Assembly: GCA_043808785.1 (NCBI GenBank)
Contig: JAZDEL010000001.1
Span: 1 to 32,000 of the forward strand
Length of the DNA: 32,000 bases
Origin: Candidatus Iainarchaeum sp.
GTDB taxonomy: Archaea; Iainarchaeota; Iainarchaeia; Iainarchaeales; JAZDEL01
Direction: 5' to 3'
Part shown: one piece after another, positions 5,290 through 20,203 of the stretch
How the letters are laid out: each line of letters begins with the position of its first letter
How positions within the stretch are numbered: the first letter of the stretch is position 1
Made by a program: the position numbers and the translations under genes
Notes under the pieces: generated by a model
What the model was told of the DNA's origin: nothing
Seen by the model: only the letters and a program-made list of their open reading frames with translations
Database searches by the model: none

Positions 5290-5880
5290 ATGACTAATGA
5301 TAAACCTGCCCTTTTCGCAGAGGTGCAACGGTTATTCAAAGGAAGGGTTGGAGCGCACGGCTTCGACCATGTTTTGCGCGTGTGCAAATACGCTTTAGAG
5401 ATTGCCGAAGAAGAAAAAGCGAACAAAAAAATTGTCGAGGCAATGGCCTTATTGCACGATATTGTCCGTTATGAGGGCGAGAAAGAAGAGGAAAGTGTTG
5501 CCGAAACTTTGGATGCGGCAAAAAGCATTCTTGAACGCACGGGCGGTTATTCTGCGGCTGAAATTCGGCATATTCTTGACGGCATAAAATCGCACTCTCT
5601 CCACTCAGAAATAAAAAGCGAGCCGCAGACTATCGAGGCGAAGATATTGTTCGATGCCGACAAAATGGATTCTGTCGGGCCGATTGGCATAGCCCGCTGG
5701 TTTACGACAATGGCGCCTAAAGGCATTCCGATTGGAAAAAGTGCCGAAATCTACCTCAGGACAATAAGGAGTATGGAAAAAAAACTTGGCGGCAAGCTCT
5801 ACACCAAAACCGCAACAAAAAAAATCAAAAATCTTGAATACACAAAAGAGTTTATGAAAGAGGTTATTCGGCAAATTTAA
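5290..5880 (+). CDS. HD-domain metal-dependent phosphohydrolase
   Basis: HGFDHVLRV ... LLHDIVR ... FDADKMD (the H...HD...D signature). TATA-like ctttatatt at 5258-5266, about 28 nt before the ATG. Confidence 0.85.
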   Translation: MTNDKPALFAEVQRLFKGRVGAHGFDHVLRVCKYALEIAEEEKANKKIVEAMALLHDIVRYEGEKEEESVAETLDAAKSILERTGGYSAAEIRHILDGIKSHSLHSEIKSEPQTIEAKILFDADKMDSVGPIGIARWFTTMAPKGIPIGKSAEIYLRTIRSMEKKLGGKLYTKTATKKIKNLEYTKEFMKEVIRQI

Positions 5881-5891
5881 ATGATGCCAAA

Positions 5892-6365
5892 ATGCGAACT
5901 GCCCAAAAACAAACCAATTTAAGCGTTTCAGTCCCCTCATTTTTTATGGATGTTTATTTCGCAATTCTGGCTTGGGATGTCATAAAATCTCCTATTAAGA
6001 GGGGCATAGCCTTGGCATTGGCTGGCGACGAAAGCTACCGAACCCCGCTTGAGGTCTCGGTTATTGTCGAGATGAAGCAGGGCGTGACATATGGCACCCC
6101 TGAAATAACTGACGCGCTGCGCGAGATGAAGGACATTGGCGCGGTTGAACACCATAGGGGGGCTTACCGCCTCTCGAAAATGTGGGTTGATTCAATGATT
6201 GAGTTCTTTGAGAAAGAGAGTGTACGGGTCGAGAAGGTTGATGACAGCGAGGCATACTTTAAGGGGTTAGTTGAGCGCCTGAAAAAGGCGGGTTTTATTA
6301 AGAAAGACGCCGAGATTGTGAACGGCACGCTAAAAAAGAGTGACTTTGTGACTGGCAAAGGTTAA
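5892..6365 (+). CDS. Hypothetical protein, possible winged-helix DNA-binding domain
   Basis: ORF from the track. The segment TPLEVSVIVE...ITDALREMKDIGAVEHHRGAYRLS resembles a recognition helix plus wing. Weak assignment. Confidence 0.45.
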   Translation: MRTAQKQTNLSVSVPSFFMDVYFAILAWDVIKSPIKRGIALALAGDESYRTPLEVSVIVEMKQGVTYGTPEITDALREMKDIGAVEHHRGAYRLSKMWVDSMIEFFEKESVRVEKVDDSEAYFKGLVERLKKAGFIKKDAEIVNGTLKKSDFVTGKG

Positions 6366-6396
6366 TAATAAAACCAATTCCTTCGCAGTTCTGTTA

Positions 6397-6801
6397 ATGC
6401 CTGAAAACATCAAAAAAAGGAAAAATGTGCCGAAGGCAATCCAGCTCAAGGTCTGGATGCGCGACAACTGGCACTGCCGTTACTGCGGGAAGCCGATGTT
6501 TTACGGGCCCGCGCTTAAACTGCTGGGCAGCCTGAACCCAAACCACAAATATTTCCACCCTAACGGAAAAGACGGAGAAATGCTTTCATTATTCGCAAAA
6601 GGCTGGGCAAGCGTTGACCATGTGAAGCCGTTCTCGCGGGAAGGAAAGGATGATATTGAAAACTACGTCTCCGCCTGCTGGGGATGTAACCTGAAATATG
6701 GCGACAGGGAGATTGGCAAAGGCAAGCTGAAACCGAGGGAAATCGTCGAGAGCGATTGGGACGGGTTTTACGGGTTGGTTGGAAAAATCAAACAACCGTA
6801 A
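6397..6801 (+). CDS. HNH endonuclease (stand-alone)
   Basis: WHCRYCGKPM ... VDHVKPFSREGKDDIENYVSACWGCNLKYGD, i.e. CxxC ... DH ... N ... CxxCN of the HNH beta-beta-alpha-Me fold. Confidence 0.85.
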   Translation: MPENIKKRKNVPKAIQLKVWMRDNWHCRYCGKPMFYGPALKLLGSLNPNHKYFHPNGKDGEMLSLFAKGWASVDHVKPFSREGKDDIENYVSACWGCNLKYGDREIGKGKLKPREIVESDWDGFYGLVGKIKQP

Positions 6802-6858
6802 TTCGTCAATAGACGAAACAAATAAAAGGATTTGCGGAGAAATCATTATTGTGTTGGA

Positions 6859-7188
6859 ATGGCGAAATTAAAGATTATAGCGGAATTTAAGAAAACCCCC
6901 CTTGAAAGAACAAGGAAAAATATCGCCAATGCGCCGGGCACAAAAGCCAAGGGCATCGGAATCTATGTCCTTTACCTCGGGGGGAAGATTGTGTATGCGG
7001 GAATTTCAAAAAGAAGCATCAGGTCCCGCCTGAAGGACCACAACAAGAGCGCTAGGAAGAAGTGGGACTCGTTCAATTACTGCAAACTTTCGCCCGATTA
7101 CAGGGGGTTCCTTACCCTTGACGAACTGGAAGAAGTTTTTATCAAGTTGCTCAACCCGAAGTTCAACATCATGAAGAAGAACGGGTAA
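6859..7188 (+). CDS. GIY-YIG domain nuclease (stand-alone, about 109 aa)
   Basis: GIGIYVLYLGGKIVYAGISKRSIRSRLKDH ... LEEVFIKLLNPKFN, giving GIY, Y-A-G, a conserved Arg, and the E...N tail. The track ORF starts at TTG 6832; ATG 6859 is preferred. Confidence 0.7.
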   Translation: MAKLKIIAEFKKTPLERTRKNIANAPGTKAKGIGIYVLYLGGKIVYAGISKRSIRSRLKDHNKSARKKWDSFNYCKLSPDYRGFLTLDELEEVFIKLLNPKFNIMKKNG

Positions 7189-7192
7189 TTGC

Positions 7193-7408
7193 ATGGACAA
7201 ATACGAACTCGCTGGCAAAATCGTTCTTGCGCCCAGCCCAGGCAAAATGATGAAACAAATAAGGGAAGAACGCGGAATCGGTCAGGGCGAACTTGCGAAG
7301 AAACTTGGGGTTAAGCAGAGCACGCTGAGCGACTACGAGGCGGGAAGGCGCGGGAGCCCGGGAACAGCGGTTGTGAAAAGGTTTGTCCAAAAAATTACGG
7401 AGGGGTAA
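7193..7408 (+). CDS. XRE-type helix-turn-helix DNA-binding protein (71 aa)
   Basis: MKQIREERGIGQGELAKKLGVKQSTLSDYEAGRR is a classic Cro/C1 HTH. Confidence 0.75.
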   Translation: MDKYELAGKIVLAPSPGKMMKQIREERGIGQGELAKKLGVKQSTLSDYEAGRRGSPGTAVVKRFVQKITEG

Positions 7409-7411
7409 ACT

Positions 7412-7519
7412 ATGGGTGAATTGCCAAAAGTAAAAATCGGAAAGAACGAATACTACGTCGACGATAGGCTGAAGCAGTTGAGGAATACGAAAAATCCGCA
7501 TGATTTTAAGGATTATTAA
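7412..7519 (+). CDS. Unannotated 35-aa micro-ORF (MGELPKVKIGKNEYYVDDRLKQLRNTKNPHDFKDY)
   Basis: My own translation. The ATG is 4 nt after the HTH stop and is preceded by GGAGGGG (7399-7405). It fills the gap between the HTH gene and the 241-aa gene. Below the track's length cutoff. Confidence 0.3.
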   Translation: MGELPKVKIGKNEYYVDDRLKQLRNTKNPHDFKDY

Positions 7520-7552
7520 GGGCAGCATGCGCGGAAGTTCTGGGGGCATTAA

Positions 7553-8278
7553 ATGAATGTGCGGGACTTTATCTCATCAGAACGGGCGCTAATAAACATC
7601 ATAATCCGAACAATTCATAATTTCCACCAAAATAGAAAAGATGTGGAAAATCTTTCCTTCTTCAATTTTTGGGTAACAAGTGTAGCCAACACTAGGACAT
7701 TCATGTATGCAGAAGCATACGGTTATGCAAAGAAGCAACGCTTGGAATTATATCTGTCTGGCAATTATTTGGGTTCGGCATTGGTCGGGGTATATTCAAT
7801 TGAACAGCTTCTGAAAAGCATTATTTCGCTAAAAAAAACAGAAAAGGAGATGGATGCCATTGACGAAAAATCGCTGGGTTTCACAATTGGCGTTTTGAAA
7901 GAGTATGGGGAATTCAGAGGGGGCGAAGGGGCGAAGATAATTGAAAATTTATACAAACTCAATAAGGAACTCAGAAACCAATTAGTGGTGCATTCAAAAG
8001 GGAAAAAACTATCTGAAAGGCATTTTGATGCAATTCATAAGGGCAATTTGTTAGATACAGAAAGAATTTTAGCAGATACTTTCAAAGGGATTTCATTTGA
8101 TGTGCTTATGTTAATTTCGCAGATTGAAACGCAGCTTGATTCGATGTTTTGTCAGAGGTTGGGGGGTCGCCACGAAAAAGGCAGAATATCAACAATTATG
8201 CGGATAAGGCCAATTGAAGATATTCTTAAGGATATACGCGAAACATGCCCCGCATACGCTAAAGATCGTCAGGTTTGA
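7553..8278 (+). CDS. Hypothetical all-alpha protein with an Rx5H (HEPN-like) motif
   Basis: ORF from the track. ELRNQLVVHS fits the HEPN Rx4-6H signature with a polar residue after the Arg. The rest looks helical. No other motif recognised. Confidence 0.55.
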   Translation: MNVRDFISSERALINIIIRTIHNFHQNRKDVENLSFFNFWVTSVANTRTFMYAEAYGYAKKQRLELYLSGNYLGSALVGVYSIEQLLKSIISLKKTEKEMDAIDEKSLGFTIGVLKEYGEFRGGEGAKIIENLYKLNKELRNQLVVHSKGKKLSERHFDAIHKGNLLDTERILADTFKGISFDVLMLISQIETQLDSMFCQRLGGRHEKGRISTIMRIRPIEDILKDIRETCPAYAKDRQV

Positions 8279-8501
8279 ATTTGTATTTGCACTCCTTGCA
8301 AACACCCTCAACCTTCTCGTTTTTCCTGTCGGTTCTACTGCTGGCGCTGCCAGTGGAGCCCTGAACCCTGTACGTTTGGGAAAATGGCGGGAACCAAAGA
8401 ACCTCGTTTTTTGTGCCGCACTCTGGGCACATTGCCTCTATTTTTTCGGGCTGCTGGGTTCCGCGGGTGAAGAGTTCGTAAGACATCAGACCCCTTACCA
8501 T
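8259..8501 (-). CDS. Zinc-ribbon protein (80 aa), last gene of the hsd-linked cassette
   Basis: CPECG...(about 37 aa)...CKECKYKF. The ATG directly abuts the upstream stop (TAAATG at 8499-8504). Confidence 0.6.
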   Translation of the reverse strand: MVRGLMSYELFTRGTQQPEKIEAMCPECGTKNEVLWFPPFSQTYRVQGSTGSASSRTDRKNEKVEGVCKECKYKFKPDDL

Positions 8502-8864
8502 TTATGGTACACAATTATAAAGATTAATAAAATTCCCTACTGTAGCGTATAAAAACCAGGCGGCACCTGCAAAAAGGCCAATTGCCACCATTGCTTTGAA
8601 GTAAACAATATTTTTGTTTCTAAAATTTCTCAAAGCAAACCAAAGCAAAATAGGAAAGGCCGTAAATGCAAATAATTTGATTAAATACGCGAAACTTCCT
8701 GCTGTTTCAAGGAGTCCCGCGAAATCGGGATTGAGCTCAGGGAGGTGGCAAAATTCCACGATAACAAACGTTGTAATTGCGTCCAGCGTGTTTGTTGTCG
8801 CAAGGGCTACGACACTGTGTGAAAACCATTGGCTAAATGGTTTGCATACTGAAATAAAGTTCAT
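8502..8864 (-). CDS. 4-TM membrane protein, DUF5658-like
   Basis: Four hydrophobic helices. LDAITTFVIVEFCHLPELNPDFAGLL resembles the D..T....G..E.NP motif I associate with DUF5658 membrane proteins. GAGGGAG lies upstream of the ATG. Confidence 0.65.
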   Translation of the reverse strand: MNFISVCKPFSQWFSHSVVALATTNTLDAITTFVIVEFCHLPELNPDFAGLLETAGSFAYLIKLFAFTAFPILLWFALRNFRNKNIVYFKAMVAIGLFAGAAWFLYATVGNFINLYNCVP

Positions 8865-8868
8865 GTGC

Positions 8869-9486
8869 TTAATACTCCCTCGGGGCTACATTGGCTTGTT
8901 GTTGTGCAGTTTCTATGAGAACTGCTTGTTTTGGGTCTTTGATTGAAAATTGGATTGTCTCGTCCACTAACAGCCTAACCCTGCCATCTAAGTTTTCTTC
9001 AGTCAAATTTAATGTCTGTTTAAGTGTTTGCCGTTCTGCATCTTTGATTTCAGATATCTTGGCATCAATATCTTTCTTTATTATAAACTCACCGATACCC
9101 CTAGCCTTTGTCAAAATTGTTGCCCCATAAGGAATTCTCCGTGAAACTAGAATGCGTACCCCGACGTAAGTTCCTATAACGTCCCCCTGCTCCCGCTGAT
9201 AGTTTGGCTTGAATTTGGCCCTATCTAGCCAAAAGAACTTATGGCTATCCTCGCTGTTTGTTATAATCAAATCAGCGTTTGGCAGTTTAGCAAGCCCTTG
9301 GTCTAATAATTTCCCAAAGATTGTTGCAGCAAATGGATTTTTGTCTTCTACAATTTCAGAGAGTGTATTCTCTTCTTTTATGGCTTGCAAAATGCTTTCA
9401 ATCACGAGTTTTATCTCACTCTCTTCCATAGGGTCTGCATACGTTTTAGGAATGGGTTTCCAGTCGTAATGAATGTAGCGAGGCAT
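8869..9486 (-). CDS. Orphan soluble protein (205 aa)
   Basis: ORF from the track. The start is 1 nt after the stop of the upstream 505-aa gene. No recognisable catalytic or binding motif. Confidence 0.7.
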   Translation of the reverse strand: MPRYIHYDWKPIPKTYADPMEESEIKLVIESILQAIKEENTLSEIVEDKNPFAATIFGKLLDQGLAKLPNADLIITNSEDSHKFFWLDRAKFKPNYQREQGDVIGTYVGVRILVSRRIPYGATILTKARGIGEFIIKKDIDAKISEIKDAERQTLKQTLNLTEENLDGRVRLLVDETIQFSIKDPKQAVLIETAQQQANVAPREY

Positions 9487-9487
9487 T

Positions 9488-11005
9488 CTAACATACCATT
9501 CTTTGTTTGTTATTGAATTTGTCCCAAGTTTTTATGAATTTTACTGCGGCATCCGTCGTTTGTTTGAATTTCCTTTTTTTGAAAAATCTTCTCGTAACTG
9601 AGTTTTTCACCAGCGCCCTAATCTTCATTTCAATTTTCTTTTTTCGTGTTTTCAATATTCCGGCATTTTTGAGGTCAAAACTTTTCGGTTTATCTTTTTG
9701 TTGAAACTGTTTCTCAATTAGCGTGGCATCCTGCCAGACTTTTCGAATCTTCCCTAAAACAGGTTTCTTGATTCGTGCATGCGGATTCGCAAAAAATATC
9801 GATTTAGAAAATTCGTGCTCCCAAAACAGTACGCCTAATATGCTCTGTTCGTTGGTTTTTTTAAAAACCTCGTGCACCATCTCACGTAGCACCCCCAAAT
9901 AATCCCGAATGTTAAAAAGGGAGTTATCTGTGTATCCCTTGAACAGCGTGTGGTTGAAGTGGACACATATGATGGGGTTATGTTTGCCCTTTAATTGCCC
10001 GTACTCAATCTTGCCCTTTATTAGTTCAGCCAGTCGGCCGAGTAAATATTCCATTATTATTGTTTGTGTAATGGATGGAAAAACAAACTCATCTTGAATC
10101 TCAACTATTCGGTGTTTTGCAGGGAAATATGCCACACTAACAATGCAATTGTCATCTATTTTTTTAGCAGATGTGTTTTTCAGAAAAGTCAAGCCTTCTG
10201 GGGAGGCACTCAATTTGGATAATCTGGCTCCAAACTCGGAATAATATTTAAACACTTCATTATAGTCAAACAGATTTTTTTTGGGGTCATTAAATTTCTC
10301 CACGTGAAACCCACCATACTCGATTAGAGCAATGGGCCATAGTGCCGCAGTGTCTCTCTGCAATAAGGGCATTATGTGTTTACGATCCATTTCTTTGGAG
10401 CTGTCCCGCAAAAGGTCAGTCCTAACGGTTAAGTTCAGGCCAGCATTTTTTGGAATTCTCTCTAATAATTCCTTTGCAATTGTTTGCAAGCCAGCCTTTA
10501 ACTCTTTATTGGGCTTGCCTTCCCCCAAACCAGTCAACTCGATATTGAATTTTATGCTCTCAATGGAAAACTCAAAATCGTTTTTAATGCCCTTCGAACT
10601 TTCATAAGCAACGTCTCTGATGATTGGGCTCTTCAGTAGATTTGATTGGAAAGTTAATTCAGACAAGGCGGATAATGTTTCTGTGTTGTCAAATTGTTTC
10701 ATCCTTCCTCTTAAATTTTCTTTTGTCTGTTTATTGCGGCTTGCAATTTCAAATTTTGTCAAAACCTTTTCTGCTTCGCACAACAGATTGTATGAAAGTG
10801 ACCTGTTGCCTTCTCTGTATGCGGATGCTGCAATATTTAGAAACACATTTGAGCCGTATTCCCTTTCGGAAAACATTGAAAAGTCGTCTACATATTTCCT
10901 TAAAATTGGAAATTCTTTAATTTGCTGTTTGCCGTTGGCTAAATGCTCCTTTTCGTAGTCTTTATTCTCGGAGACTGTCACAATGACCGTGTTAACGCCC
11001 GCCAA
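9488..11005 (-). CDS. Orphan soluble protein (505 aa) with a strongly basic C-terminal tail
   Basis: Long ORF in an AT-rich region where long ORFs rarely arise by chance. No P-loop, nuclease, methylase or RT motif seen. The last ~80 aa are K/R-rich (KTRKKKIEMKIRALVKNSVTRRFFKKRKFKQ). TTG start is uncertain. Confidence 0.75.
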   Translation of the reverse strand: MAGVNTVIVTVSENKDYEKEHLANGKQQIKEFPILRKYVDDFSMFSEREYGSNVFLNIAASAYREGNRSLSYNLLCEAEKVLTKFEIASRNKQTKENLRGRMKQFDNTETLSALSELTFQSNLLKSPIIRDVAYESSKGIKNDFEFSIESIKFNIELTGLGEGKPNKELKAGLQTIAKELLERIPKNAGLNLTVRTDLLRDSSKEMDRKHIMPLLQRDTAALWPIALIEYGGFHVEKFNDPKKNLFDYNEVFKYYSEFGARLSKLSASPEGLTFLKNTSAKKIDDNCIVSVAYFPAKHRIVEIQDEFVFPSITQTIIMEYLLGRLAELIKGKIEYGQLKGKHNPIICVHFNHTLFKGYTDNSLFNIRDYLGVLREMVHEVFKKTNEQSILGVLFWEHEFSKSIFFANPHARIKKPVLGKIRKVWQDATLIEKQFQQKDKPKSFDLKNAGILKTRKKKIEMKIRALVKNSVTRRFFKKRKFKQTTDAAVKFIKTWDKFNNKQRMVC

Positions 11006-11028
11006 TATTTTCTTACGAATGATTCTGT

Positions 11029-11373
11029 TTATTTTCCTCTTTTTGCATTAAATAAATATTCTTTTTTACAGTCGTTGCAATAAAACCTGACTTCATGTTT
11101 TGTTATTTCCACATTTTTTGATTTGCAAGTATCGCAACAAATATCCGGTTCTGGCACAGGAAAAATGCTTCTTTTGAAAATGGCTCCGAGAATGCCGTTT
11201 CCCGCAAGAAAGATGGCTGCTGGGGGGACTAATGATATGGAAAGCCCGCCAATAAGAAAACTTGCAAAAGGTAGCCCAAAAATTGCGTTAACCAACACAA
11301 CAAACCAGCAGAACAATTGCAACGGAATGCCCACAACTTTTAGGGGAAGGCTGAAAACCAACTTTTTTTCCAT
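11029..11373 (-). CDS. 3-TM membrane protein with a C-terminal zinc ribbon
   Basis: Hydrophobic N-terminal two thirds, then CCDTCKSK...(13 aa)...CNDCKKEY. The track ORF starts at TTG 11409, but ATG 11373 overlaps the stop of the upstream 55-aa ORF (TAATG), which favours MEKKLVF... as the start. Confidence 0.65.
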   Translation of the reverse strand: MEKKLVFSLPLKVVGIPLQLFCWFVVLVNAIFGLPFASFLIGGLSISLVPPAAIFLAGNGILGAIFKRSIFPVPEPDICCDTCKSKNVEITKHEVRFYCNDCKKEYLFNAKRGK

Positions 11374-11540
11374 TAGCGCCACCTCAAAGGGGTTCTGCAT
11401 GAATTGCAAATGACGGCGTTCTTGGGAATTTCAGCTTTGCAAACTGGGCATTTTGGTTTTAATATTTCCGCCAAAAGAGCTAATCCGATAGCCCCTAGCA
11501 CAAGACCAGTCAATAATTCCATTGCTTCATCATTGTCCAT
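11373..11540 (-). CDS. Unannotated 55-aa TM + zinc-ribbon protein
   Basis: My own reverse-complement translation: MDNDEAMELLTGLVLGAIGLALLAEILKPKCPVCKAEIPKNAVICNSCRTPLRWR. The ATG at 11540 immediately follows the hsdS stop codon (11541-11543). Its stop overlaps the next ATG. Below the track's length cutoff. Confidence 0.5.
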   Translation of the reverse strand: MDNDEAMELLTGLVLGAIGLALLAEILKPKCPVCKAEIPKNAVICNSCRTPLRWR

Positions 11541-12686
11541 TCAACTCACCAACTCTCCGGAAAACGCTTTAACCAAAACTGATTTGGGCAGAAAATATAG
11601 TTGCGATTCCATTTTTTTAATTTCAGATTCTATCAATTCGCCTTTTGATTTGATTTCGGTTAATTTGCAGACAATTTTCTTTTGTTCGCTTTTGGGCGGA
11701 AATCTAATGGCATACTTTGATATTTTTTGAAAGGAGGTTCTTGGCAATTGGACCCCTGATGTATTTGCGGATGCAAAAGATACGAATCTGTCTGAAAGTA
11801 GCAAATAAAACAAATATTCACCTTCAATTTCTTCTGAAGGAATTAGCGGAATCAAATCTGTCGAAACCGCCCCAGAAAAATCAGCATAAAACGTCTTATT
11901 CAAATAAGGCCTAAGTTTCCCATAAACAACATCTCCTGGGAAAAATTTATTTTTTGTACTCTTTAAATCAGGGTTCTTAATTTGTGTTATAACTCTTCCT
12001 TTTTTTGACTCGATATGTTCGAATCCAACGTAATTAGTTATTTTTTCTTTTTTTGGGTCAATTTTATCTTTTCTGACTTTAACTAACTCACCTAACGGTT
12101 TTTCAGACCAACCCGCGGGCAAATCTCTGGCATAATGCATTAACCCAGATATTGCTTTTTGCATAATTTCCGCATGTTGCTTTTTCACCGTTTCATTTTC
12201 TTTTTTCATTTCGTCGTATTTTTCAAAGAACGCGTCAAGCTTGGCAACGATTTTTTCTTGGACGGGGAGAGAGGGAACGGGGACTTCTATCTCTAACAAT
12301 TTGGGTTTTGTGATATGTGTCATCCCTGTGCCGTGTGTCTTTTTCTTTATGTCTTCTAAGATATGCTTTATCAAATAGTAAAAATAATTTTTTTTGATAA
12401 TTTTCTCATTTGGAATAACCTTAAAGATGTGCTGGTTGAGAAGTGCATCTCCTTCGTCCCAAATAAAAATATCCAATGTAGCTGACCACGCCAAAAGCAA
12501 ATCGCCATTTTTTATCAAATGTTTTTTTTCATAATCTCCCGCATAATAATTTACTACGTCCGTAGAGTTGGTCAAATTTTGAATACGGATTATTGGTAAG
12601 CCTTTCTTGCCCCATTCACTTGGTTTGAATGCCCTGCCATTAATGTAATCTGCAACTTCCCTAAGCGTTTTAATTTCCGTTTCCAT
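11541..12686 (-). CDS. hsdS: Type I restriction-modification specificity subunit
   Basis: Two target-recognition halves separated by conserved helical spacers (LPVQEKIVAKLDAFFEKYDEMKKE... and PPKSEQKKIVCKLTEIKSKGELIESEIKKME...). Overlaps hsdM by 17 nt. Confidence 0.9.
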   Translation of the reverse strand: METEIKTLREVADYINGRAFKPSEWGKKGLPIIRIQNLTNSTDVVNYYAGDYEKKHLIKNGDLLLAWSATLDIFIWDEGDALLNQHIFKVIPNEKIIKKNYFYYLIKHILEDIKKKTHGTGMTHITKPKLLEIEVPVPSLPVQEKIVAKLDAFFEKYDEMKKENETVKKQHAEIMQKAISGLMHYARDLPAGWSEKPLGELVKVRKDKIDPKKEKITNYVGFEHIESKKGRVITQIKNPDLKSTKNKFFPGDVVYGKLRPYLNKTFYADFSGAVSTDLIPLIPSEEIEGEYLFYLLLSDRFVSFASANTSGVQLPRTSFQKISKYAIRFPPKSEQKKIVCKLTEIKSKGELIESEIKKMESQLYFLPKSVLVKAFSGELVS

Positions 12687-14076
12687 TGTTCAGCACCTGC
12701 TCAATTTCATCAAGATAGCCCGCAATCTTTTCTTGGCTGTTGCGGATGTTTTGAATTATTTCTTCTGGCGTTTCAAGCTCGCCATCGTCAAGGCTTTCAT
12801 CTTTGAGTAAGATAATGTCGAGGTTATACTTGCGCCCCTCTATTTCCTTTCTTAAAAATGATTTGAAGCGTTCCGTTTCGGTGCGCGGGCTCGTTCCGTT
12901 CGGGTTTGAGCCAAAGGCCTTTTCAAACTCGGCGAACATTTCCTGAGTTAAGGGGCGCTCCTTTTTTGTGACGCCCGCAATATTGGTTCGATTGTCATAA
13001 ATCCAGACTTTTTCTGTTTTTGCCCCCTTTGTGAAGAACAAGACATTTGCCTTGACCCCTTGGGAATAAGGCGAAAAGGTTCCGTGAGGCAGCCTGAGAA
13101 CCGTATGCAGGGTGCAATCCTCCATCAGGTTCTTTATGACCTGGCTGGCAGAGTGTTCCTCAAACAAAACATTATCGGGCAAGATAATCGCACACCTGCC
13201 GCCAGGCTTGAGAATAGTTACGCAGTGTTGCAAAAAGTTAAGCTGCTTGTTGCTGGTTTCAATCGTGAAATCCTCTCTTTCGGGTGCCTCGCCCGCGCCC
13301 TTTGTCCCGAATGGGGGGTTGGTCAAAATGCAGGAATATCTTTTATTGGGGTCAGGCTCGGCGATTGAATCGCCCAAATGAATGCCGTCTTTTATCCCGT
13401 GCAGATACAAATTCATCAGCGCAAGCCTTCTCGGGCGCTCGACCAATTCCGTGCCAGAATATGTCTTCTCCTTTAGCCTTTGCAATTCTTCCCTCGGAAT
13501 TTCCGCGCCGCCCTTTGTCTGTCCTATAAGCCATTCGTACGCCTCAACCAAAAACCCGCCAGTTCCGGCGGCTGGGTCGTGAACTGTAAGCCCCTTTTCT
13601 TTAAGCGGATTTGGTTTCATTACTTTGACAATTGACTTTATCAAAATTCTTGGCGTGAAATATTGCCCCGCCCCTTTTTTGGCTTCCGAGGCGGCTTTTT
13701 CTAGCAAGCCCTCGTAGGCCTCCGCCTTAACGTCAACCCCTAAAGCGCTCCATTCGGTTTCGTCAATAAGACTGATAAGTTTTTTCAGATTCACAGGGTT
13801 ATTAAAACGGGAAAGGGCTCCAGCAAATATGTCGCCAAGCATCCCTTTTTCTTTGCCCAGATTCCGCAATAAGTCCGAGTAGAATTCAGTTAGTTCCGTT
13901 CCACTTTTTTCTTTCAGTTTGCCCCAGCTCCACTGCTTCGGTATGTCTTGCCCTTTTTCCTCACCCATTTTAAGGAATAACAAAAACGTCAGTTGTTCTA
14001 TGTAGTCACCGTAGTCTATTCCATCGTGGCGGAGGATGTGGCAGAACCCCCAAAGTTTTTGCACTATGTTCGTCAT
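12670..14076 (-). CDS. hsdM: Type I restriction-modification N6-adenine DNA methyltransferase subunit
   Basis: HsdM N-terminal domain (LWGFCHILRHDGIDYGDYIEQLTFLLFLK), QYFTPR, motif I DPAAGTGGF, and motif IV LTNPPFG. Confidence 0.95.
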   Translation of the reverse strand: MTNIVQKLWGFCHILRHDGIDYGDYIEQLTFLLFLKMGEEKGQDIPKQWSWGKLKEKSGTELTEFYSDLLRNLGKEKGMLGDIFAGALSRFNNPVNLKKLISLIDETEWSALGVDVKAEAYEGLLEKAASEAKKGAGQYFTPRILIKSIVKVMKPNPLKEKGLTVHDPAAGTGGFLVEAYEWLIGQTKGGAEIPREELQRLKEKTYSGTELVERPRRLALMNLYLHGIKDGIHLGDSIAEPDPNKRYSCILTNPPFGTKGAGEAPEREDFTIETSNKQLNFLQHCVTILKPGGRCAIILPDNVLFEEHSASQVIKNLMEDCTLHTVLRLPHGTFSPYSQGVKANVLFFTKGAKTEKVWIYDNRTNIAGVTKKERPLTQEMFAEFEKAFGSNPNGTSPRTETERFKSFLRKEIEGRKYNLDIILLKDESLDDGELETPEEIIQNIRNSQEKIAGYLDEIEQVLNNGNGN

Positions 14077-16736
14077 CTTGCCATCGCCTCATTGAACTGC
14101 TTAAGCAAAGGCTCAAGTTTGCCGTTGAAAATTTTATCCGCCTTTTTCCATGAACCCCGCCTTGCGAAAATTGGCATCTCTTCGAAATCCTCCTTCTCAA
14201 CCGCAAGGTTCGTAACCATGTGGTTCTTGATTAATTCGAGCCACTGCACCTGTTCGGGCGTGAATTGTTTCCCTTTGGTTACTTTCTCAATCGCCTTTGC
14301 AACTCTCTCCTCGGCAGTAAGCAGGGGCTCATTTTTCGCTGCATGCTTGATTATGGAAATAATGTCCGCCAGTTCGTTGTGGTATGCCCTGCGCAGGTTA
14401 TCTTCGGTGAAACGCTGCGGCGTCTGCTCGAGTTTCTTCCTCAAGTCGGTCAGAGGTTCGGTGCCCCAGCCTTTGGGTCTTTCAAGAAGGATTTTAATTG
14501 CCTCGATTTTCTCGGGGTTTTTCTTGACGAATTGTTCAAACTCTTTCAGGTAGTCAACAGGCTTCAACTCCCTGCCATCATTCGTTCTGAAAACATATTC
14601 TGATGAAACCTCATCCTTTGTTTCATGGGCGACAAGGAAAACCTTTTGCGCCTTCGGATAATTGTGTAAAACGTCCTGAAATTCCTTGTTTTCAAGAATC
14701 TTTATCGTGCCAACAAAGTCGGTTTCAAGCCTTTCAGGCAATTTTGAGGCAAATACTCCTATATCGCCTTTCTCTATAAATTTCTCAAACAGCGGAAATG
14801 CCTCGGCGCTCATGCTTTTGGAAATTCTGTGCATCCTCTTAATCAGGCAGGTTGTGTTGTATTTTCTGTCTTGGTTATTATGGATGGCTTTGATAATCTC
14901 CTGCATTGTTCTGCCAGGCTTGTCGGGCGCCTGGCTTGTGAAGTCGGTTATTTTGTTAAAGTATTCCAGAAGCGTTCCGTCAAAACAGTCAAATGCGGTA
15001 AAGTGGGTTTTTCCTATTTCATCGCACGTTCTTGTCCCGCGCCCCATCATTTGCGTAAATAATATCCTCGATTTTACGGGGCGCATGAACACGATATTTT
15101 CAAGCGCGGGAATGTCGATGCCCGTTGAAAGCATATCGACAGTTACAACCACGCCCGGCTTCTGGCGGTTTCTGAACTCGCGGATTCTCTGCAGTGGGCG
15201 GTCAACGTTTGGGTTTCCCGTAATTTTCTGCACAAAATCGTCGCCCTTCCCAAATAGTTCCCTGCAAACCCGCACAATCTGGTCGCAGTGAGATGCGTGC
15301 GGCAAATCACCCACCGCAAAAATAAGGGTTTTGGGGAACCTGCCGAATTCCTTTTCCTGGTTTTTTATATATTTGGCAACTTCTTTCAGAATCTTCCTGT
15401 TGCTGTCGGGTGAAGTTATCTCCTTTTCGATTTTTACAGGGTCAAATTGCCGTTCGTCCTCCAGCTGGTCGAGAACCTCTCTGCCTGTTTCGGTATCAAT
15501 CATCCCGACTTTTTCGTTTTCTTTAAGGAAAATTCCCTTCATCCTCACGTTTGACGCAATCTTTACTTCATCAAAAGGAACCAAATAGCCGTCGTTGACC
15601 GCTTGCTCGTAATCATAGCGGAACACAGGCGTGCCAAAATATGCGGTGGTGTGCGCCGCGGGTGTCGCAGTCAGCCCTATCTTCACTGCATTAAAATGGT
15701 TCAGAACCTCGCGCCACTTGCTTTCTTCCGTTGCGGTGTAACCGCGGTGGCATTCATCCGCGATTACAATGTCAAAAGCGTTTATTGGAATATTAAGTTT
15801 TTCTGCATCAAATTCAGTTTCCTCGCTGGGCTCATCCTCAAAGCGCGATTCCTTCCCGAAGATGTTTATCCTCATCCTCTGGATTGTTGAAACGTAAACA
15901 AACGCAAGGCCCGGCTGCGGGTGCTCGAGGTAATGCGAAGGCAGTTCCTGTGGGTTGAACTTGAAGTCATCATCAAAGTCATCCTTGTGCATCCTCTGGC
16001 TGTAAACCTCGTATAATTTGTCGAACTTCTTTCCTGGCTCGGGCTCGAAAGTTTTGAATGCCCTGACTGCCTGTGCAGCCAGCGCCCTCCTGTCAACAAG
16101 GAAAAGAATTCTCTTGCCATAGTTCGATTTCATCAGGCGATAGATTTCGGAAATTACGGTGTATGTCTTGCCTGTTCCTGTAGCCATTGCAACCATCATG
16201 TTGCGCTTATTTTTCCTCAAAGAATCCTCGATTGCTTTTGTTGCATCAATCTGGTAGTATCTGAGCCGCGGGTGGTCGTTTGGGTGCTTTTCAAGCAATT
16301 CCAGAGCTATTTTTGGATTCTTTAAAAGGAGTTCGTTTATTGCGGAGGGCGTGTGGAACTTGGCAACCTTTTCTGAATAACTCTCGGCATTCCGTAAGTC
16401 TTGGAACCAGATTATTTCGCCGTTTGTGGAATAAATGAATGGCACTTTTAAGCCGTTGAAATCGAACGGGCTATTTTTTACTCCGCGCGCATACCGTTGA
16501 GCCTGAACAAGCACGTTTTGCGGCCCGACGGAAAGCTTTTTTGCCTCAACAACTGCAACAATCAAGCCGTCAATAAAAAGCGCATAATCCGCAGGGCCCT
16601 CTTTGGTGTCGAACTCTCCAACTGCAAAGGCGCCATTTTCGGGTATCTTGTCGGTTGGCTTCAGCACCTTCCAGCCGCTCTCTTTCAGTTTAGGGTCAAT
16701 AAGGGCATAGCGGGTTTGGCTCTCGCTGGGTTTCAT
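14073..16736 (-). CDS. hsdR: Type I restriction enzyme R subunit (nuclease-helicase)
   Basis: N-terminal PD-(D/E)xK (ADYALF...VAVVEAKK). SF2 motifs AMATGTGKT, ADECHRG, LTATP, QMMGRGTR. Long helical C-terminal domain. ATGA overlap with hsdM. Confidence 0.95.
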   Translation of the reverse strand: MKPSESQTRYALIDPKLKESGWKVLKPTDKIPENGAFAVGEFDTKEGPADYALFIDGLIVAVVEAKKLSVGPQNVLVQAQRYARGVKNSPFDFNGLKVPFIYSTNGEIIWFQDLRNAESYSEKVAKFHTPSAINELLLKNPKIALELLEKHPNDHPRLRYYQIDATKAIEDSLRKNKRNMMVAMATGTGKTYTVISEIYRLMKSNYGKRILFLVDRRALAAQAVRAFKTFEPEPGKKFDKLYEVYSQRMHKDDFDDDFKFNPQELPSHYLEHPQPGLAFVYVSTIQRMRINIFGKESRFEDEPSEETEFDAEKLNIPINAFDIVIADECHRGYTATEESKWREVLNHFNAVKIGLTATPAAHTTAYFGTPVFRYDYEQAVNDGYLVPFDEVKIASNVRMKGIFLKENEKVGMIDTETGREVLDQLEDERQFDPVKIEKEITSPDSNRKILKEVAKYIKNQEKEFGRFPKTLIFAVGDLPHASHCDQIVRVCRELFGKGDDFVQKITGNPNVDRPLQRIREFRNRQKPGVVVTVDMLSTGIDIPALENIVFMRPVKSRILFTQMMGRGTRTCDEIGKTHFTAFDCFDGTLLEYFNKITDFTSQAPDKPGRTMQEIIKAIHNNQDRKYNTTCLIKRMHRISKSMSAEAFPLFEKFIEKGDIGVFASKLPERLETDFVGTIKILENKEFQDVLHNYPKAQKVFLVAHETKDEVSSEYVFRTNDGRELKPVDYLKEFEQFVKKNPEKIEAIKILLERPKGWGTEPLTDLRKKLEQTPQRFTEDNLRRAYHNELADIISIIKHAAKNEPLLTAEERVAKAIEKVTKGKQFTPEQVQWLELIKNHMVTNLAVEKEDFEEMPIFARRGSWKKADKIFNGKLEPLLKQFNEAMAR

Positions 16737-16760: not shown

Positions 16761-19073
16761 TTAAAATCCTTGCTTTTGGCTGTTTTCAAACAATTTCCTT
16801 ACCTTCCCCCCCACCTCAGTCCTCGTCAGCACCTCCCCATACTGCGCATACTCCTTCTTCAGTTCCTTGTCCGTAACAACAAAGAACCATAGTTTGTACC
16901 TTTCATTCAGCGCCCTAACCTTCTCCTCAATCTGCGCCTTCTTCTCCGCAACTGAGCCTGTTTCAACCTCCACCGCAACCAGCACATTCAGCCCCTTGAT
17001 ATGGCCTGTCCTGTTCGGCGCAATAAAGGTGATGTCCGCCTCCTTCGTGAACTTTACTGAAACAGTGTCCGTATATTTCCTCAACTCGTCCGCAATCAAC
17101 TCAACCAAAAAAGCGTGCTTGAGCGATTCCTTCCCCGCTGGCTTCTTAATCAAATACGCCTGCCCTCTCCCTTCCCCAAGCCCGGGCTGCCTTGATTCGA
17201 CGAAACCCTGCGCCTTCAGGAACTTTACTTGGTCTTCATTCAAATCCTTGAGCGCGTAATATCTTTTCTCCAAATGATATGGGGAAAAATCCTCCTCCTT
17301 TTTCTCAGCCATTCCCTTAAGCACCTTCTCGCGCATCCGTACCTCGTCCGGGTTTGTCGTTATGAGTTCATGTTCCTTCTCCGAAGCGACAACCCTCAGA
17401 GGAATGTGGTCGTTCATGGCAAACAGCAAACCTTCCCCCTGCGTCGCGGTCAACAGAAAGCCCTGCTCCTCCTCGTTCAAATTGAACTTCTCGCTCAGCT
17501 CCTTCATAACAGCGGGCTCCTGCCTGAGCAAAAGTTTCCACGCAGTGTTTGCAAGCGTTGTAGCCCCTGCCTTGGAACTCAGCAAATCGTTAACCTCCTG
17601 CGTTATTATCACAAGCCCAAGCCCGAACTTGCGCGCGGTCTTAATCATTTCAAAAATATACCTTGAGTGCTGCCCGTAGCGCAATAAAGTCCACGCTTCA
17701 TCAATCACAAGAAGTTTCCGTTCCCTGCTGGCGTGCATCTTGTTCCTCACGAACTCCAGAATCAAAAACATCATCACTGGCTTAACCTGCGAAGGCATCT
17801 CCGCAATGTCAAAAGAAATAAAATCGTTCTCAAGGTCAAGGTTCGTCTGCCTGTTCAGGAAACTGAACGAACCTTTCGCGTAAATCCTAATCCTGTTAGC
17901 AAGCGCGTCATATGTCATGCGCTCAATCTTGCTCCCGCCCTGCTTCTCCTTCTCAATCTCGTTGTACAAATCCTCCATCACGGGCGGCTTTTTGCCCCAT
18001 GTGCTTTTGTTGTTCGAGATAATTCCCTTCTGCTCATAAACACTCTGCACGCACTTGTCAAGGATGTTCTTCTGAACCTCGGAAAGCTCCCCGCACATTA
18101 TGCGGAACAAGTCCATCAAAATCAGCATCTTCTCCCCGAAGTCCTGCCCCATCAAATCAAATGGGTTTATGATTGTCTCGCTCTCCCTGCTTATCTTCAC
18201 AACCTGCCCGTTATACGTTTTCACGACATCCGTGTACTCGCCCTGCGGGTCTATGATGTTAACCTTAACCCCCTTCAGCAAATTCCGCAGAATGAAAAGC
18301 TTGCAGTAAAAACTCTTCCCCCCTCCCGAAGTGCCAAGAATTAAACCATTGTAGTTCGTCAGCCCGTAAGGGTTGATAATTATGGGAATATTGTTCTCCT
18401 TGTTCAGCCCGACCATAATGCCTTCCTCATCCATGTTAAGAAAGGCAGAAGTGAAAGGAAAGCACGCTCCAAGCGCGTGCGAGGTAATATTGCGCGTGAC
18501 ATTCAGCCTGTCCCTCTGCAGGGGAATAACCGACTGCAAAGCCTGAAGCATCCGCAGGCACGGAGTTTTCGGGATTATCATTATTGAATTGAGTTCAGAT
18601 TCAATTTTCCTGCTCAAAAGTTCAAGCTTCTCCCGCGAAGGGGCGCGCGCGTTCACATAAAGCGCGATGTTGAAAAGCTTCTCCTCCCCTTTCTGCAATT
18701 TCTCCAGCGTGCCGAGCGTGTCCTGATGCTGAACCCTCAGCGAGGGGTTTACAATGCCCTTCATCTCCGCCGACATAATGTCCGATTCTTGCTTAACCAA
18801 TTCCTGATTTAAGCCGGTCATAATCGTGTCTATGTTCGCGGGCGTGATGAACATGCTCAAATCGAAATCCCCCTCGCTCGAAACAATAGAGCCTAACCAG
18901 CCCTCCCTAATCAGCCGCGGATATCCGACAGCCATAACCACGCGGTTGTATTGGCTGTTAACCCGTACGCAGTCGAACTCGTTCTTTATGTAGTGCGGCC
19001 TGAGCAGCGGCTGGAGGTCATGCTTCAGCGAAACGCTTTTGCCATTCCCGCGCTTAAAGAAACTTAGCAACAT
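16761..19073 (-). CDS. VirB4/TraC-type type IV secretion ATPase with a ~170-aa C-terminal PD-(D/E)xK-like extension
   Basis: LILGTSGGGKSF (Walker A, nt 18312-18335), VNIIDPQGEY, LLVIDEAW (Walker B), VIITQE. The C-terminal extension has KHAFLVELIADEL ... EADITFI ... LVAVEVETG. Confidence 0.9.
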   Translation of the reverse strand: MLLSFFKRGNGKSVSLKHDLQPLLRPHYIKNEFDCVRVNSQYNRVVMAVGYPRLIREGWLGSIVSSEGDFDLSMFITPANIDTIMTGLNQELVKQESDIMSAEMKGIVNPSLRVQHQDTLGTLEKLQKGEEKLFNIALYVNARAPSREKLELLSRKIESELNSIMIIPKTPCLRMLQALQSVIPLQRDRLNVTRNITSHALGACFPFTSAFLNMDEEGIMVGLNKENNIPIIINPYGLTNYNGLILGTSGGGKSFYCKLFILRNLLKGVKVNIIDPQGEYTDVVKTYNGQVVKISRESETIINPFDLMGQDFGEKMLILMDLFRIMCGELSEVQKNILDKCVQSVYEQKGIISNNKSTWGKKPPVMEDLYNEIEKEKQGGSKIERMTYDALANRIRIYAKGSFSFLNRQTNLDLENDFISFDIAEMPSQVKPVMMFLILEFVRNKMHASRERKLLVIDEAWTLLRYGQHSRYIFEMIKTARKFGLGLVIITQEVNDLLSSKAGATTLANTAWKLLLRQEPAVMKELSEKFNLNEEEQGFLLTATQGEGLLFAMNDHIPLRVVASEKEHELITTNPDEVRMREKVLKGMAEKKEEDFSPYHLEKRYYALKDLNEDQVKFLKAQGFVESRQPGLGEGRGQAYLIKKPAGKESLKHAFLVELIADELRKYTDTVSVKFTKEADITFIAPNRTGHIKGLNVLVAVEVETGSVAEKKAQIEEKVRALNERYKLWFFVVTDKELKKEYAQYGEVLTRTEVGGKVRKLFENSQKQGF

Positions 19074-19242
19074 CTCCCCTCCTTTTTTTCACAATTTCCG
19101 TGAATTCCTTCTCATTGTTCTTAATCTCTTTTATTTTTACCCCGAACAGAACCCTCGCCACCGCGGCAAGAATGCGGTTCATCCTCCCGAGCTGCCGAGA
19201 ACTTTCTATTATCGCATCCTCAACCTTCTTGTCCATGCGCAT
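19054..19242 (-). CDS. Possible small protein (about 60 aa) between the VirB3-like and VirB4 genes
   Basis: A shortened version (from MRMDKK...) of track ORF 19054-19353. It would fill an otherwise non-coding 146-nt gap and overlaps the VirB4 start by 20 nt. No motif recognised. Confidence 0.3.
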   Translation of the reverse strand: MRMDKKVEDAIIESSRQLGRMNRILAAVARVLFGVKIKEIKNNEKEFTEIVKKRRGDVAKFL

Positions 19243-20188
19243 TTTTTCCGCCAAATGAATCACCCCCTTTTGCCTTGCCGAATTCATCAAGAACCGTAAC
19301 AGCGGAAACGTAATCCCCGCCAGCCTCGACAAACCCCTCAAAATAAGACGCAAGCAAAGAAGTCAGTTCGCCCGTGCCGAGCCTTCTCGTGGAAAGGTTG
19401 CACGCCTTCAGTTTGCCTTGGCACAATTTGGCACGTATCGCCAATTGGTTCAGCGCAATTTCGCTATTCAGTTCATACGTTGTCTTCTGCTTTTCGCGCG
19501 AAAACAAATTCCTGAAGTTCACAAAAATATCCCGCAGAACATTCGCGGAAAAAGACGGCGAATACGGAATGATGATGTAAAAAAGGCGGTTCTTCACGGC
19601 ATTTTCCTCTATGAACCCACGCATGAACTCTTGGAATGAATTGAACTGCTCAAGCAACTGCTCCTTTTTCAGCGCCTTAACTTCGCCCTCCAAATGTGAA
19701 AGGTAGTCGTCAATCGAAAGGTTAACCGTGCGCATAACTATCTGTATCGGGAAATCAAGGGAGTTGAGGAAGTCGGAAAAAGCCCGCACAATCGCCCTCT
19801 GCTGTTCTTGCTCTAAAATCGAAAAATTAATAGGTGTGACCTGCACAACCGCAAGCATCCCGTCCTTCAGGTAAACAGTGTCATCTGATATCCTCTCGAC
19901 TTCTATGAACTTGTTTATCCGCGGGTCGAAATAGCCAGCCTCGCCGATTGAGGCTTTGAATGTCGCAAAGTTCTTCAGGTGCGTACCCAAGCCGAAAAAG
20001 GCGAACCCTGCGGCCAGCAGCGCGAAAAACACTGCGGCGGCAACCTTAATCTCAAATGGTAGCGCGGTTTTGAGGAAAACAACAGCACCCATGCCCCCAA
20101 ACAACCCAACCCAAGCAAGCTGGCTGAACGTGAGGTTGAACAGTATTTTTTCGCTGTATTTCAGGTTCTGCGGTATTTCGTATGCCAT
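19220..20188 (-). CDS. PrgI/VirB3-like membrane protein fused to a cytoplasmic VirB4-N-terminal-like domain
   Basis: The N-terminus MAYEIPQNLKYSEKILFNLTFSQLAWVGLFG plus two TM helices matches the PrgI-family signature (P..l....K..FnLT.rQl). It is followed by VYLKDGMLAVVQVTPINFSILEQEQQRAIVRAFSDFLNSLDFPIQIV, which resembles N-terminal regions of monoderm VirB4 proteins. Confidence 0.7.
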   Translation of the reverse strand: MAYEIPQNLKYSEKILFNLTFSQLAWVGLFGGMGAVVFLKTALPFEIKVAAAVFFALLAAGFAFFGLGTHLKNFATFKASIGEAGYFDPRINKFIEVERISDDTVYLKDGMLAVVQVTPINFSILEQEQQRAIVRAFSDFLNSLDFPIQIVMRTVNLSIDDYLSHLEGEVKALKKEQLLEQFNSFQEFMRGFIEENAVKNRLFYIIIPYSPSFSANVLRDIFVNFRNLFSREKQKTTYELNSEIALNQLAIRAKLCQGKLKACNLSTRRLGTGELTSLLASYFEGFVEAGGDYVSAVTVLDEFGKAKGGDSFGGKNAHGQEG

Positions 20189-20203
20189 TTTCTCAACCCC
20201 TAA

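Follow-up and report, generated by a model that had tools for sequence, protein, structure and literature searches.

A frameshifted archaeal gene joining a nuclease-like domain to a predicted HK97 capsid-fold module: probably a decayed copy of an undescribed conflict module

According to a 2025 review (PMC12746231), the only home of the HK97 fold found so far outside viruses is the encapsulins, for which it lists roles in metal storage, elemental metabolism and stress resistance. Here we describe a gene in which a module predicted to have this fold is joined to a nuclease-like domain. The gene lies in a 32,000-nucleotide stretch of DNA from the archaeon Candidatus Iainarchaeum sp. (assembly GCA_043808785.1, contig JAZDEL010000001.1, positions 1 to 32,000), and the whole of this stretch is called the window below. 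In known HK97 shells the subunit's N-terminus faces the lumen, and HK97 gp5 carries a lumen-facing N-terminal extension, the delta or scaffold domain. The defence systems CBASS, Thoeris, Avs/STAND and retrons combine a constant component with alternative HNH, TIR, transmembrane or PD-(D/E)xK-type effectors. The window gene is probably what is left of a capsid-fold conflict module that has so far gone undescribed and whose mechanism we infer. We consider it reasonably likely that the split gene represents a module of two parts, for conflict (defence or addiction), that a mobile island carries as cargo.

A sequence-only reading of this DNA had described two adjacent orphan proteins of 505 and 205 aa, the products of open reading frames (ORFs) orf3 and orf4. 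These are not two proteins but the halves of one gene with a 1-nt frameshift between them. When one A was removed from the A5 run at 9533-9529, an uninterrupted 711-aa ORF resulted. Two intact homologues, P0002 (700 aa, 51% identity) and P0003 (697 aa, 40% identity), each span both window proteins in one chain, and the 711-aa ORF is collinear with both. The parts of the gene, in window coordinates, are as follows.

8869..11005, minus strand: ancestral orf3+orf4 gene, encoding a fusion protein of ~711 aa, interrupted by a +1-nt frameshift
11005-9488, minus strand: orf3, 505 aa from TTG (the NCBI call is 497 aa from GTG)
9486-8869, minus strand: orf4, 205 aa
9529..9533, minus strand: A5 run at the frame break, reading TTC ATA AAA [A]CT TGG on the minus strand
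9716..11005, minus strand: N-domain, ~430 aa, an orphan family with a PD-(D/E)xK-like signature
10421..10684, minus strand: putative nuclease core, with E116 in a helix, D143 in a strand and E156-L-T in a strand, then a helix and a strand (mapped from orf3 numbering)
9530..9685, minus strand: lysine/arginine (K/R)-rich "tail" of orf3, the predicted N-terminal arm or helix and first part of the HK97-fold module
8869..9528, minus strand: body of the predicted HK97/encapsulin-fold module, consisting of orf4 and 14 in-frame codons upstream of it

Word-indexed searches returned five relatives for the 505-aa protein and two for the 205-aa protein. Upstream of its ATG, the orf4 frame reads K-LGTNSITNKEWYVR-MPRY, and P0002 has FIK-LGNSHLAGKEWFVR-MPRY at the same place; the locus search selected the LGTNSITNKEWYVR stretch as one of the two patterns best conserved in the four closest relatives. 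Fourteen codons separate the frameshift from the start of orf4, and they would be translated by neither ORF. Because these untranslated codons still encode the conserved stretch, the break must be recent, an artefact, or bypassed. A peptide spanning the break in a read-through or intact product would contain FIKLGTNSITNK. The break is located within the HK97 module and not at a domain boundary, and, if the frameshift is not an error of assembly, the window copy is probably no longer active or in decay.

The C-terminal ~265 aa, i.e., the K/R-rich tail plus orf4, is on the evidence of structural modelling an HK97 capsid-fold module of encapsulin size. An AlphaFold2 (AF2) model of window sequence 8872-9528, built with a 39-sequence alignment, had a predicted local distance difference test score (pLDDT) of 90.5 and a predicted template modelling score (pTM) of 0.82. 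A Foldseek search of the PDB with this model gave 228 matches at E ≤ 1e-3, and the best 50 of the 228 were all capsid proteins or encapsulins, taking in phage capsids and encapsulins of families 1, 2A and 2B, with query-normalised TM-scores mostly of 0.5-0.63. Top matches, with E values of 1e-7 to 3e-7, included the phage B2 capsid, P. furiosus PfV, a family 2A encapsulin and the HK97 prohead; the encapsulins matched included PfV (2e0z), family 2A (8t6r), SrpI (6x8m), T. maritima (7lis) and family 2B (9bje). The 205-aa protein, therefore, is not an orphan, as it had been called, in that it has a predicted HK97 capsid/encapsulin fold. In hindsight, a weak match of orf4 to the "major head protein" family phrog_544 (E=0.066) pointed to the right fold.

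Sequence profiles agreed with the model, weakly. The 39-member C-module profile, run against PDB sequences, matched the phage major capsid protein 6wkk (E=0.002), T. maritima encapsulin (maritimacin; E=0.009-0.1) and PfV (E=0.03); the encapsulin matches were weak, and the matches fell in collinear positions along the ~265-residue module. Profile positions 15-45 aligned with T. maritima encapsulin residues 10-40, an alignment weak on its own, and the K/R-rich tail aligned with the start of C-module proteins that stand alone, P0007 among them. The four closest C-module sequences alone gave only noise in the PDB profile search, and the full-length alignment A2 gave no matches there. When full-length P0002 was modelled from seven sequences, the N-domain was usable and the C-part had a pLDDT of <50.

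The N-domain is nuclease-like, in that it resembles in predicted layout the PD-(D/E)xK nucleases. Thus the earlier statement that none of the window proteins in question carries a nuclease motif is doubtful, given a PD-(D/E)xK-like E...D...E-x-T signature in this domain. In the 63-sequence alignment A4, E156, Q337 and N407 were present in 63/63 sequences, E116 and N53 in 62/63, and D143 in 58/63, the rest having E. The lysine position of the third motif was occupied by T in 44 sequences, G in 14, S in three, C in one and K in one. Because the canonical lysine is mostly T or G, the domain is called nuclease-like here and not a proven member of the superfamily. The distant members P0121 and P0116 read PD...ELK and PD...EVK, respectively. 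In the AF2 model of P0002, the N-part had block pLDDT values mostly of 73-91, with two weaker blocks at 62 and 56, and the predicted order of the core was alpha-beta-beta-beta-alpha-beta (H102-120, E124-132, E135-143, E146-154, H159-176, E183-190), carrying E112, D138 and E151. The N-domain proteins P0018, P0030 and P0054 have a different C-terminal extension of ~270 aa that ends in "...RVKIRIAEKFNIKR...", an ending that resembles the C-terminal strand of the HK97 module; the extension may be a very divergent capsid-fold module. Two hhalign comparisons, of the P0030 C-extension with A3 (E=0.026) and of the P0116 N-region with A4 (E=0.11), were weak and were not used as evidence.

An exhaustive profile search at E ≤ 1e-3 found 209 representatives of the family among 1.84 billion. 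Local hidden Markov models sorted 152 sequences into 107 with the N-domain only (median 426 aa), 39 with the C-module only (median 264 aa) and six fusions. The N-domain is fused to the HK97 module in the window gene, P0002 and P0003, and such fusions make up 6/152 representatives. Judged by homology, the module in the relatives is usually encoded by a free-standing gene for ~264 aa, and its partner lies directly upstream or is fused N-terminally. In loci L005 and L006 an HNH gene (166 aa) abuts the start of the module gene P0007. In L010, P0031 shares its first 11 nt with an upstream HNH gene (133 aa), and the HNH proteins of L005 and L010 are homologous (E=2e-7); in L016 an uncalled 122-aa HNH ORF abuts P0083. 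The partner is a TIR gene (189 aa) in L012, where it overlaps the start of P0060 by 8 nt, and P0123 and P0138 are themselves fusions of a TIR domain with the module (Pfam TIR_2, E=5e-11). In L014 and L015 the start of P0051 is overlapped by the gene for a 123-aa protein with hydrophobic segments that look membrane-like by eye.

The sequence-only reading had proposed checking whether the gene order is conserved and enriched beside hsd or other defence genes. The six-gene order that it described (see below) was not kept in the 13 loci with orf3/orf4 family members; what did hold was that the orf3/orf4 family recurs beside defence genes. P0002 (locus L001) lies downstream of a Type I restriction-modification (R-M) operon with an integrase nearby, and an integrase adjoins P0060. 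By eye, neighbouring proteins in L002 have an HEPN-like Rx4H motif, and L005 has a cut ORF with a PD-(D/E)xK-like motif; Mrr_cat is also near in L005. An MmeI-like R-M gene and a large STAND-like NTPase gene are near P0083 in L016, and the L013 context was uninformative. The family occurs mainly in DPANN-type archaeal metagenomes. In L011 (1957-5775), the TIR-HK97 fusion P0123 is beside two more TIR proteins, one of them with a deoxycytidylate deaminase-type DCD domain, and an AAA_14/DUF4143 ATPase, so that the locus looks like a dense TIR-based defence island. In L014 (6211-8736), genes for a family B DNA polymerase (PolB) and an Lhr-type helicase are near the membrane-protein/HK97-module pair, and L014 may be another mobile, self-replicating element carrying the module.

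By analogy, one constant module with swappable toxic effectors would follow the logic of conflict systems. Like CBASS, Thoeris, Avs and retrons, the family has swappable effectors and overlapping gene pairs and is found in defence islands and mobile elements. Unlike them, its constant part is a predicted capsid-fold protein and not a cyclase, NTPase or reverse transcriptase, it is known here from genes alone, and no PADLOC v2 model matches it. The sequence-only reading had recognised no known defence system, and this held: the six window proteins gave 0 matches at E ≤ 1 against PADLOC-DB v2.0, and the 39 C-module members gave two marginal single matches only (E ~0.004). Full-text searches of the literature turned up no paper that connects TIR, HNH or defence islands to encapsulins or other HK97-fold proteins. 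The pairing of HK97 module and effector is, within PADLOC v2 and the literature searched, undescribed.

The frameshifted gene is part of an array that had been proposed as a six-gene cassette coupled to the 3' end of a Type I R-M operon. All six are found in the window as described, on the minus strand and with the stated junctions, and a hydropathy/Cys-motif script bore out the transmembrane (TM) segments of orf1, orf2 and orf5 and the CxxC pairs of orf1, orf2 and orf6. The other members of the array are as follows.

11541-16736, minus strand: Type I R-M operon, with hsdR at 16736-14073, hsdM at 14076-12670 and hsdS at 12686-11541 (Pfam)
11540-11373, minus strand: orf1, 55 aa, with a TM segment at 5-29 and a CPVC/CNSC zinc ribbon (hydropathy/Cys-motif script)
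11373-11029, minus strand: orf2, 114 aa from ATG, with a hydrophobic span at 5-66 and a C-terminal zinc ribbon, CDTC/CNDC
8864-8502, minus strand: orf5, 120 aa, a DUF5658 membrane protein with 3-4 TM segments
8501-8259, minus strand: orf6, 80 aa, a CPEC/CKEC zinc ribbon

The Pfam matches of the hsd genes were HSDR_N, ResIII and EcoEI_R_C for hsdR, N6_Mtase and HsdM_N for hsdM, and Methylase_S, in two matched stretches, for hsdS. When the six proteins were searched against Pfam, NCBIfam, PHROGs and PADLOC, a cut-off was passed only by the match of orf5 to Pfam DUF5658 (27.0 vs 25.2 bits, E=7.7e-6); zinc-ribbon Pfam models scored below their cut-offs for orf1. All six ORFs are annotated in the source metagenome-assembled genome, which is that of a Candidatus Diapherotrites archaeon (V1676_00075 to V1676_00100); orf1, which had been thought unannotated, is included. 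The TGA of hsdS (11543-11541) is directly against the ATG of orf1 at 11540, orf1 and orf2 overlap as TAATG, and a gap of 23 nt separates orf2 from orf3. The orf3/orf4 junction is TAG-A-ATG, 4 nt separate orf4 from orf5, and orf5 meets orf6 as TAAATG. This tight spacing had been read as a sign of coupling. By the ORF coordinates, 13 ORFs follow one another in the same direction over 22620-8259, never more than 146 nt apart, and tight spacing is general throughout this run, as it is in this compact genome. Further, relatives of orf3 abut varied upstream genes, encoding a membrane protein (L001), a protein with an HEPN-like motif (L002) or a GatB/GatE-like tRNA amidotransferase (L003/L004), and therefore abutting junctions in these genomes are no proof of functional linkage.

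The cassette itself is, by comparison with the related loci, not a conserved system. A tblastn search with all window proteins found no homologue of orf1, orf2 or orf5 in the 13 loci with orf3/orf4 family members, and the 90%-identity cluster of orf2 has one member; these three are, by sequence comparison, lineage-specific fillers. The combination of three zinc ribbons that had been pointed out is not a recurring one. A homologue of orf6, 76% identical, follows the HK97-module gene in L005/L006 (L005 1987-2214). That orf6 might be a dedicated partner of the HK97 gene was ruled out by eight further metagenome homologues (L018-L025), all of them in loci without an HK97 gene. At 5/8 of these loci, Pfam-confirmed R-M or methyltransferase genes of Types I, II and III were close neighbours, as follows.

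L018: orf6 homologue with Type I-like N6_Mtase and Methylase_S neighbours
L019: orf6 homologue with N6_N4 and D12 methyltransferase neighbours
L022: orf6 homologue ~11 nt upstream of an N6_N4 methyltransferase
L023: two orf6 copies flanking Type III mod and res genes
L024: orf6 homologue upstream of a methyltransferase and a ResIII helicase

The suggestion of R-M-linked accessory genes has genuine support for orf6 and is not supported for orf1, orf2, orf5 and orf3/orf4. The homologues of orf6 often sit immediately upstream of the methyltransferase, and the family is well conserved, with the motif (alignment A7) K..CPxCGTKNEVLWFP...EKVxGxCKxCxYKFKPDDL. R-M controller (C) proteins come from small helix-turn-helix genes that lie just upstream of the methyltransferase or restriction genes or diverge from them. 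Like them, orf6 homologues are small genes at such a position in several R-M types; unlike them, orf6 has a zinc ribbon and not a helix-turn-helix, and the window copy is at the far 3' end of the array. From its gene contexts, the orf6 family may serve the R-M systems of DPANN-type archaea as a small regulator or accessory.

The setting of the array is rich in defence and mobile-element genes: hsdRMS and type IV secretion system (T4SS) genes are upstream, and HD, HNH, GIY-YIG and helix-turn-helix (HTH) genes are on the opposite strand. Directly upstream of hsdRMS, at 16761-23007 on the minus strand, is a T4SS/conjugation-like set with a VirB4-like ATPase, a PrgI-like protein, a VirB2/TrbC-type pilin and several ORFs of unknown kind; this set marks a conjugative-type island. 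The ATPase (770 aa, with an extra C-terminal domain) matches the Pfam TraG P-loop, AAA_10 and DUF87 models and also phrog_2666, labelled "terminase large subunit" (E=1e-24). That the island might be a provirus, as this match would suggest, was ruled out by the Pfam results and the adjoining PrgI and VirB2-type pilin genes, which indicate a T4SS; the "terminase" match is probably a labelling issue in PHROGs. Converging on orf6 from the plus strand, at 5290-8278, are genes for an HD protein (196 aa), a 157-aa ORF with a weak match to the FokI recognition domain, an HNH protein (134 aa), a GIY-YIG protein (118 aa), an Xre-type HTH protein (71 aa) and a 241-aa ORF. The 3' end of this last ORF overlaps that of orf6 by 20 nt, and its product has a possible HEPN-like R-x5-H motif (LRNQLVVH); similar motifs occur in proteins adjoining HK97-module genes in L002 (IRNKFAH) and L010 (PRDHLIVH).

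Cellular genes occupy both ends of the window, with KaiC, polyprenyl synthetase, a V4R-domain protein and a hexapeptide-repeat transferase at one and an RMMBL-domain hydrolase, HhH-GPD and an M48 peptidase at the other. The window has no tRNA genes and no Rfam matches. The fraction of guanine plus cytosine (GC) is 0.36-0.40 from hsdS through the cassette, or 0.36-0.42 when the 241-aa ORF is counted too (7500-13000), vs 0.45-0.48 for hsdM/hsdR, and up to 0.50 with the T4SS genes; the right-hand chromosomal flank has 0.53-0.55. The drop from hsdM/hsdR to hsdS and the cassette suggests a separate origin, and the whole GC pattern suggests a mosaic island with parts that may have been acquired separately.

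If the unit is a conflict module carried as cargo by an integrated conjugative-type island, the capsid-fold protein would be a self-assembling platform that controls a toxic effector placed on its lumen-facing N-terminus. In the resting state, assembly would cage the effector or keep it inactive. Infection would alter the assembly state, e.g., when HK97 capsid or scaffold proteins of the invader itself interfere or co-assemble with the platform, and the altered assembly would cluster or release the effector, so that DNA is cut or nicotinamide adenine dinucleotide (NAD) depleted. In its specific form, in which an encapsulin-like protein cages effectors until infection, or mimics a capsid and co-assembles with viral capsid machinery, we hold the idea of a capsid-derived immune system only tentatively. 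Pure encapsulation is attractive in that encapsulin cargo, too, is encoded upstream of the shell gene or fused to it. By our own volume estimate, however, a 48-kDa domain on each of 60 or 180 subunits would need all the room inside a T=1 or T=3 shell, or more, and a membrane-protein partner cannot be lumen cargo; simple encapsulation is therefore not the whole story, and we prefer a switch in assembly state.

Other observations also weigh against a conflict module. The defence role is read from ~10 neighbourhoods, and the frameshifted window copy may do nothing. The canonical lysine is absent in 62/63 N-domain sequences, and no profile or fold search (Pfam, PDB, Foldseek PDB, BFVD) confirmed the PD-(D/E)xK superfamily for the N-domain: the best Foldseek PDB match was MepB (E=0.27, 33 columns), BFVD gave nothing significant, the PDB profile search with alignment A4 gave 0 matches, and Pfam gave nothing consistent, one member matching HSDR_N_2 (E=0.037). 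Among the 152 representatives, 107 are stand-alone N-domain proteins, and the single long context of such a protein is a housekeeping one (GatD/GatE, ProRS). None of the 39 C-module members matched Pfam Linocin_M18 at E ≤ 0.1, and no encapsulin-type targeting peptide common to the C-termini of the upstream partners was found by eye.

A further possibility, which we take seriously without favoring it, is that the frameshift arose as an artefact of sequencing or assembly, or that +1 recoding at AUA-AAA-A bypasses it, and that the fusion encoded in the window is intact and functional. The frame is broken by one base within a homopolymer, the out-of-frame stretch keeps the conserved family motif with no decay, and tRNA-Lys, as we reason, can pair anew with AAA after a +1 shift. 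On the other side, a run of A5 offers little length for slippage or for the usual errors of short reads, orf4 has an ATG of its own one base past the orf3 stop, and NCBI annotates two proteins. No second assembly of the locus was found, and an exact DNA search of GTDB genomes, among which the source genome is not included, gave no match to an unshifted allele. Further, it is unlikely, in our estimation, that the gene encodes an ordinary metabolic or stress encapsulin nanocompartment with the N-domain as a housekeeping cargo enzyme and no conflict role. The closest of the encapsulins are those of family 1 (maritimacin, 3DKT; PfV, 2E0Z, with an N-terminally fused ferritin-like cargo). They share with the ~265-aa module the predicted HK97 fold, an encapsulin-like size and an N-terminal helix; the module's N-terminal segment and C-terminal "VRL..E...F.v..p.A...L" strand align with the encapsulin termini; the best sequence matches, weak as they are, include the T. 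maritima and P. furiosus encapsulins; and no viral hallmark genes are nearby. A cargo gene directly upstream or fused N-terminally is the classical encapsulin layout (PMC8346489, PMC12746231), and the one N-domain-only homologue among translation genes fits a housekeeping role. Unlike the encapsulins, with their peroxidases, ferritins and desulfurases, the module has as partners HNH, TIR, a membrane protein and a PD-(D/E)xK-like domain, and HNH, TIR and nuclease-like domains are typical toxic effectors. The module genes are in defence islands and mobile elements, with R-M, Mrr, STAND and integrase genes as neighbours, and the family is patchy and rare. Added to this are the lack of a Linocin_M18 match and of a recognisable targeting peptide, and the difficulty of fitting a 48-kDa fusion into a small, putative shell. 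Neither the 2021 encapsulin census (PMC8346489) nor the 2025 review (PMC12746231) mentions a nuclease or TIR.

A capsid fold in a mobile island, where integrases adjoin P0002 and P0060, might also be the remnant of a virus, satellite or other capsid-forming mobile element, i.e., a decaying capsid gene with a fused scaffold or accessory domain; this too we regard as improbable. The predicted fold is that of HK97-type major capsid proteins (HK97 gp5, lambda gpE, Shigella phage B2), phage capsids are among the best Foldseek matches (E ~1e-7), and the window copy is frameshifted. HNH genes, moreover, often accompany phage packaging modules. Unlike viral capsid genes, the module is without portal, protease, tail or phage-type terminase genes, none of which was found in the window (Pfam, PHROGs) or in the gene tables of L001-L017; the window scans gave no capsid match either, and the sole "terminase" PHROG match is the VirB4-like ATPase. 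Relatives were not found by tblastn against INPHARED phages or against plasmids, by searches of viral contigs with P0149 and P0083 (IMG/VR scans), or by a pattern search with alignment A5 (close relatives) of genome, viral and metagenome contigs. What is kept instead, across members 20-50% identical, is a one- or two-gene unit with toxic-enzyme partners, and this implies selection on the unit itself. Last among the alternatives, and in our judgment very improbable, is that the six genes form one R-M-coupled, membrane-associated defence or DNA-handling system working with hsdRMS. The tight junctions, the common strand with hsdRMS, the lack of a match to known systems, the similar position of P0002 downstream of a Type I R-M operon and the R-M association of orf6 relatives speak for it. 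Like PrrC in the EcoprrI hsd locus, the extra genes are contiguous with a Type I R-M operon on the same strand; unlike PrrC, they follow hsdS and are not inside the operon, and no ABC-ATPase or anticodon-nuclease domain is present. Because the cassette is not conserved, a six-gene system is contradicted; of the earlier interpretation, which is supported in part, this claim of a zinc-ribbon/membrane system is best abandoned, and the split gene with its family is the main object of interest, orf6 coming second. In L001 the interval between hsdR and P0002 encodes different proteins, unrelated to those of the window, and the orf6 homologues occur without the other five genes. The hsd link is not kept either: a Type I R-M operon is near a family member only in the window and L001, i.e., in 2 of ~10 family contexts, with none in 8/10, and the R-M gene of L016 is MmeI-like. 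The general tightness of the array, the unrelated genes that orf3 relatives abut and the GC difference between hsdS-cassette and hsdM/hsdR also argue against such a system.

For annotators, the window shows that "orphan" pairs with 1-nt junctions can be split genes, and the orf6 zinc-ribbon family is a candidate R-M accessory or regulator in archaea. The conflict-module reading has wider meaning at the level of the family, which couples a predicted HK97 fold to standard immune effectors, i.e., HNH, TIR, a membrane protein and a nuclease-like domain, in defence islands and mobile elements, a pattern that would surprise specialists. If this coupling is functional, it may offer a new means of making lethal enzymes harmless to their host through physical caging or, alternatively, of sensing viral capsid assembly by mimicry; the protein would then be the first of encapsulin type with an immune rather than a metabolic role.

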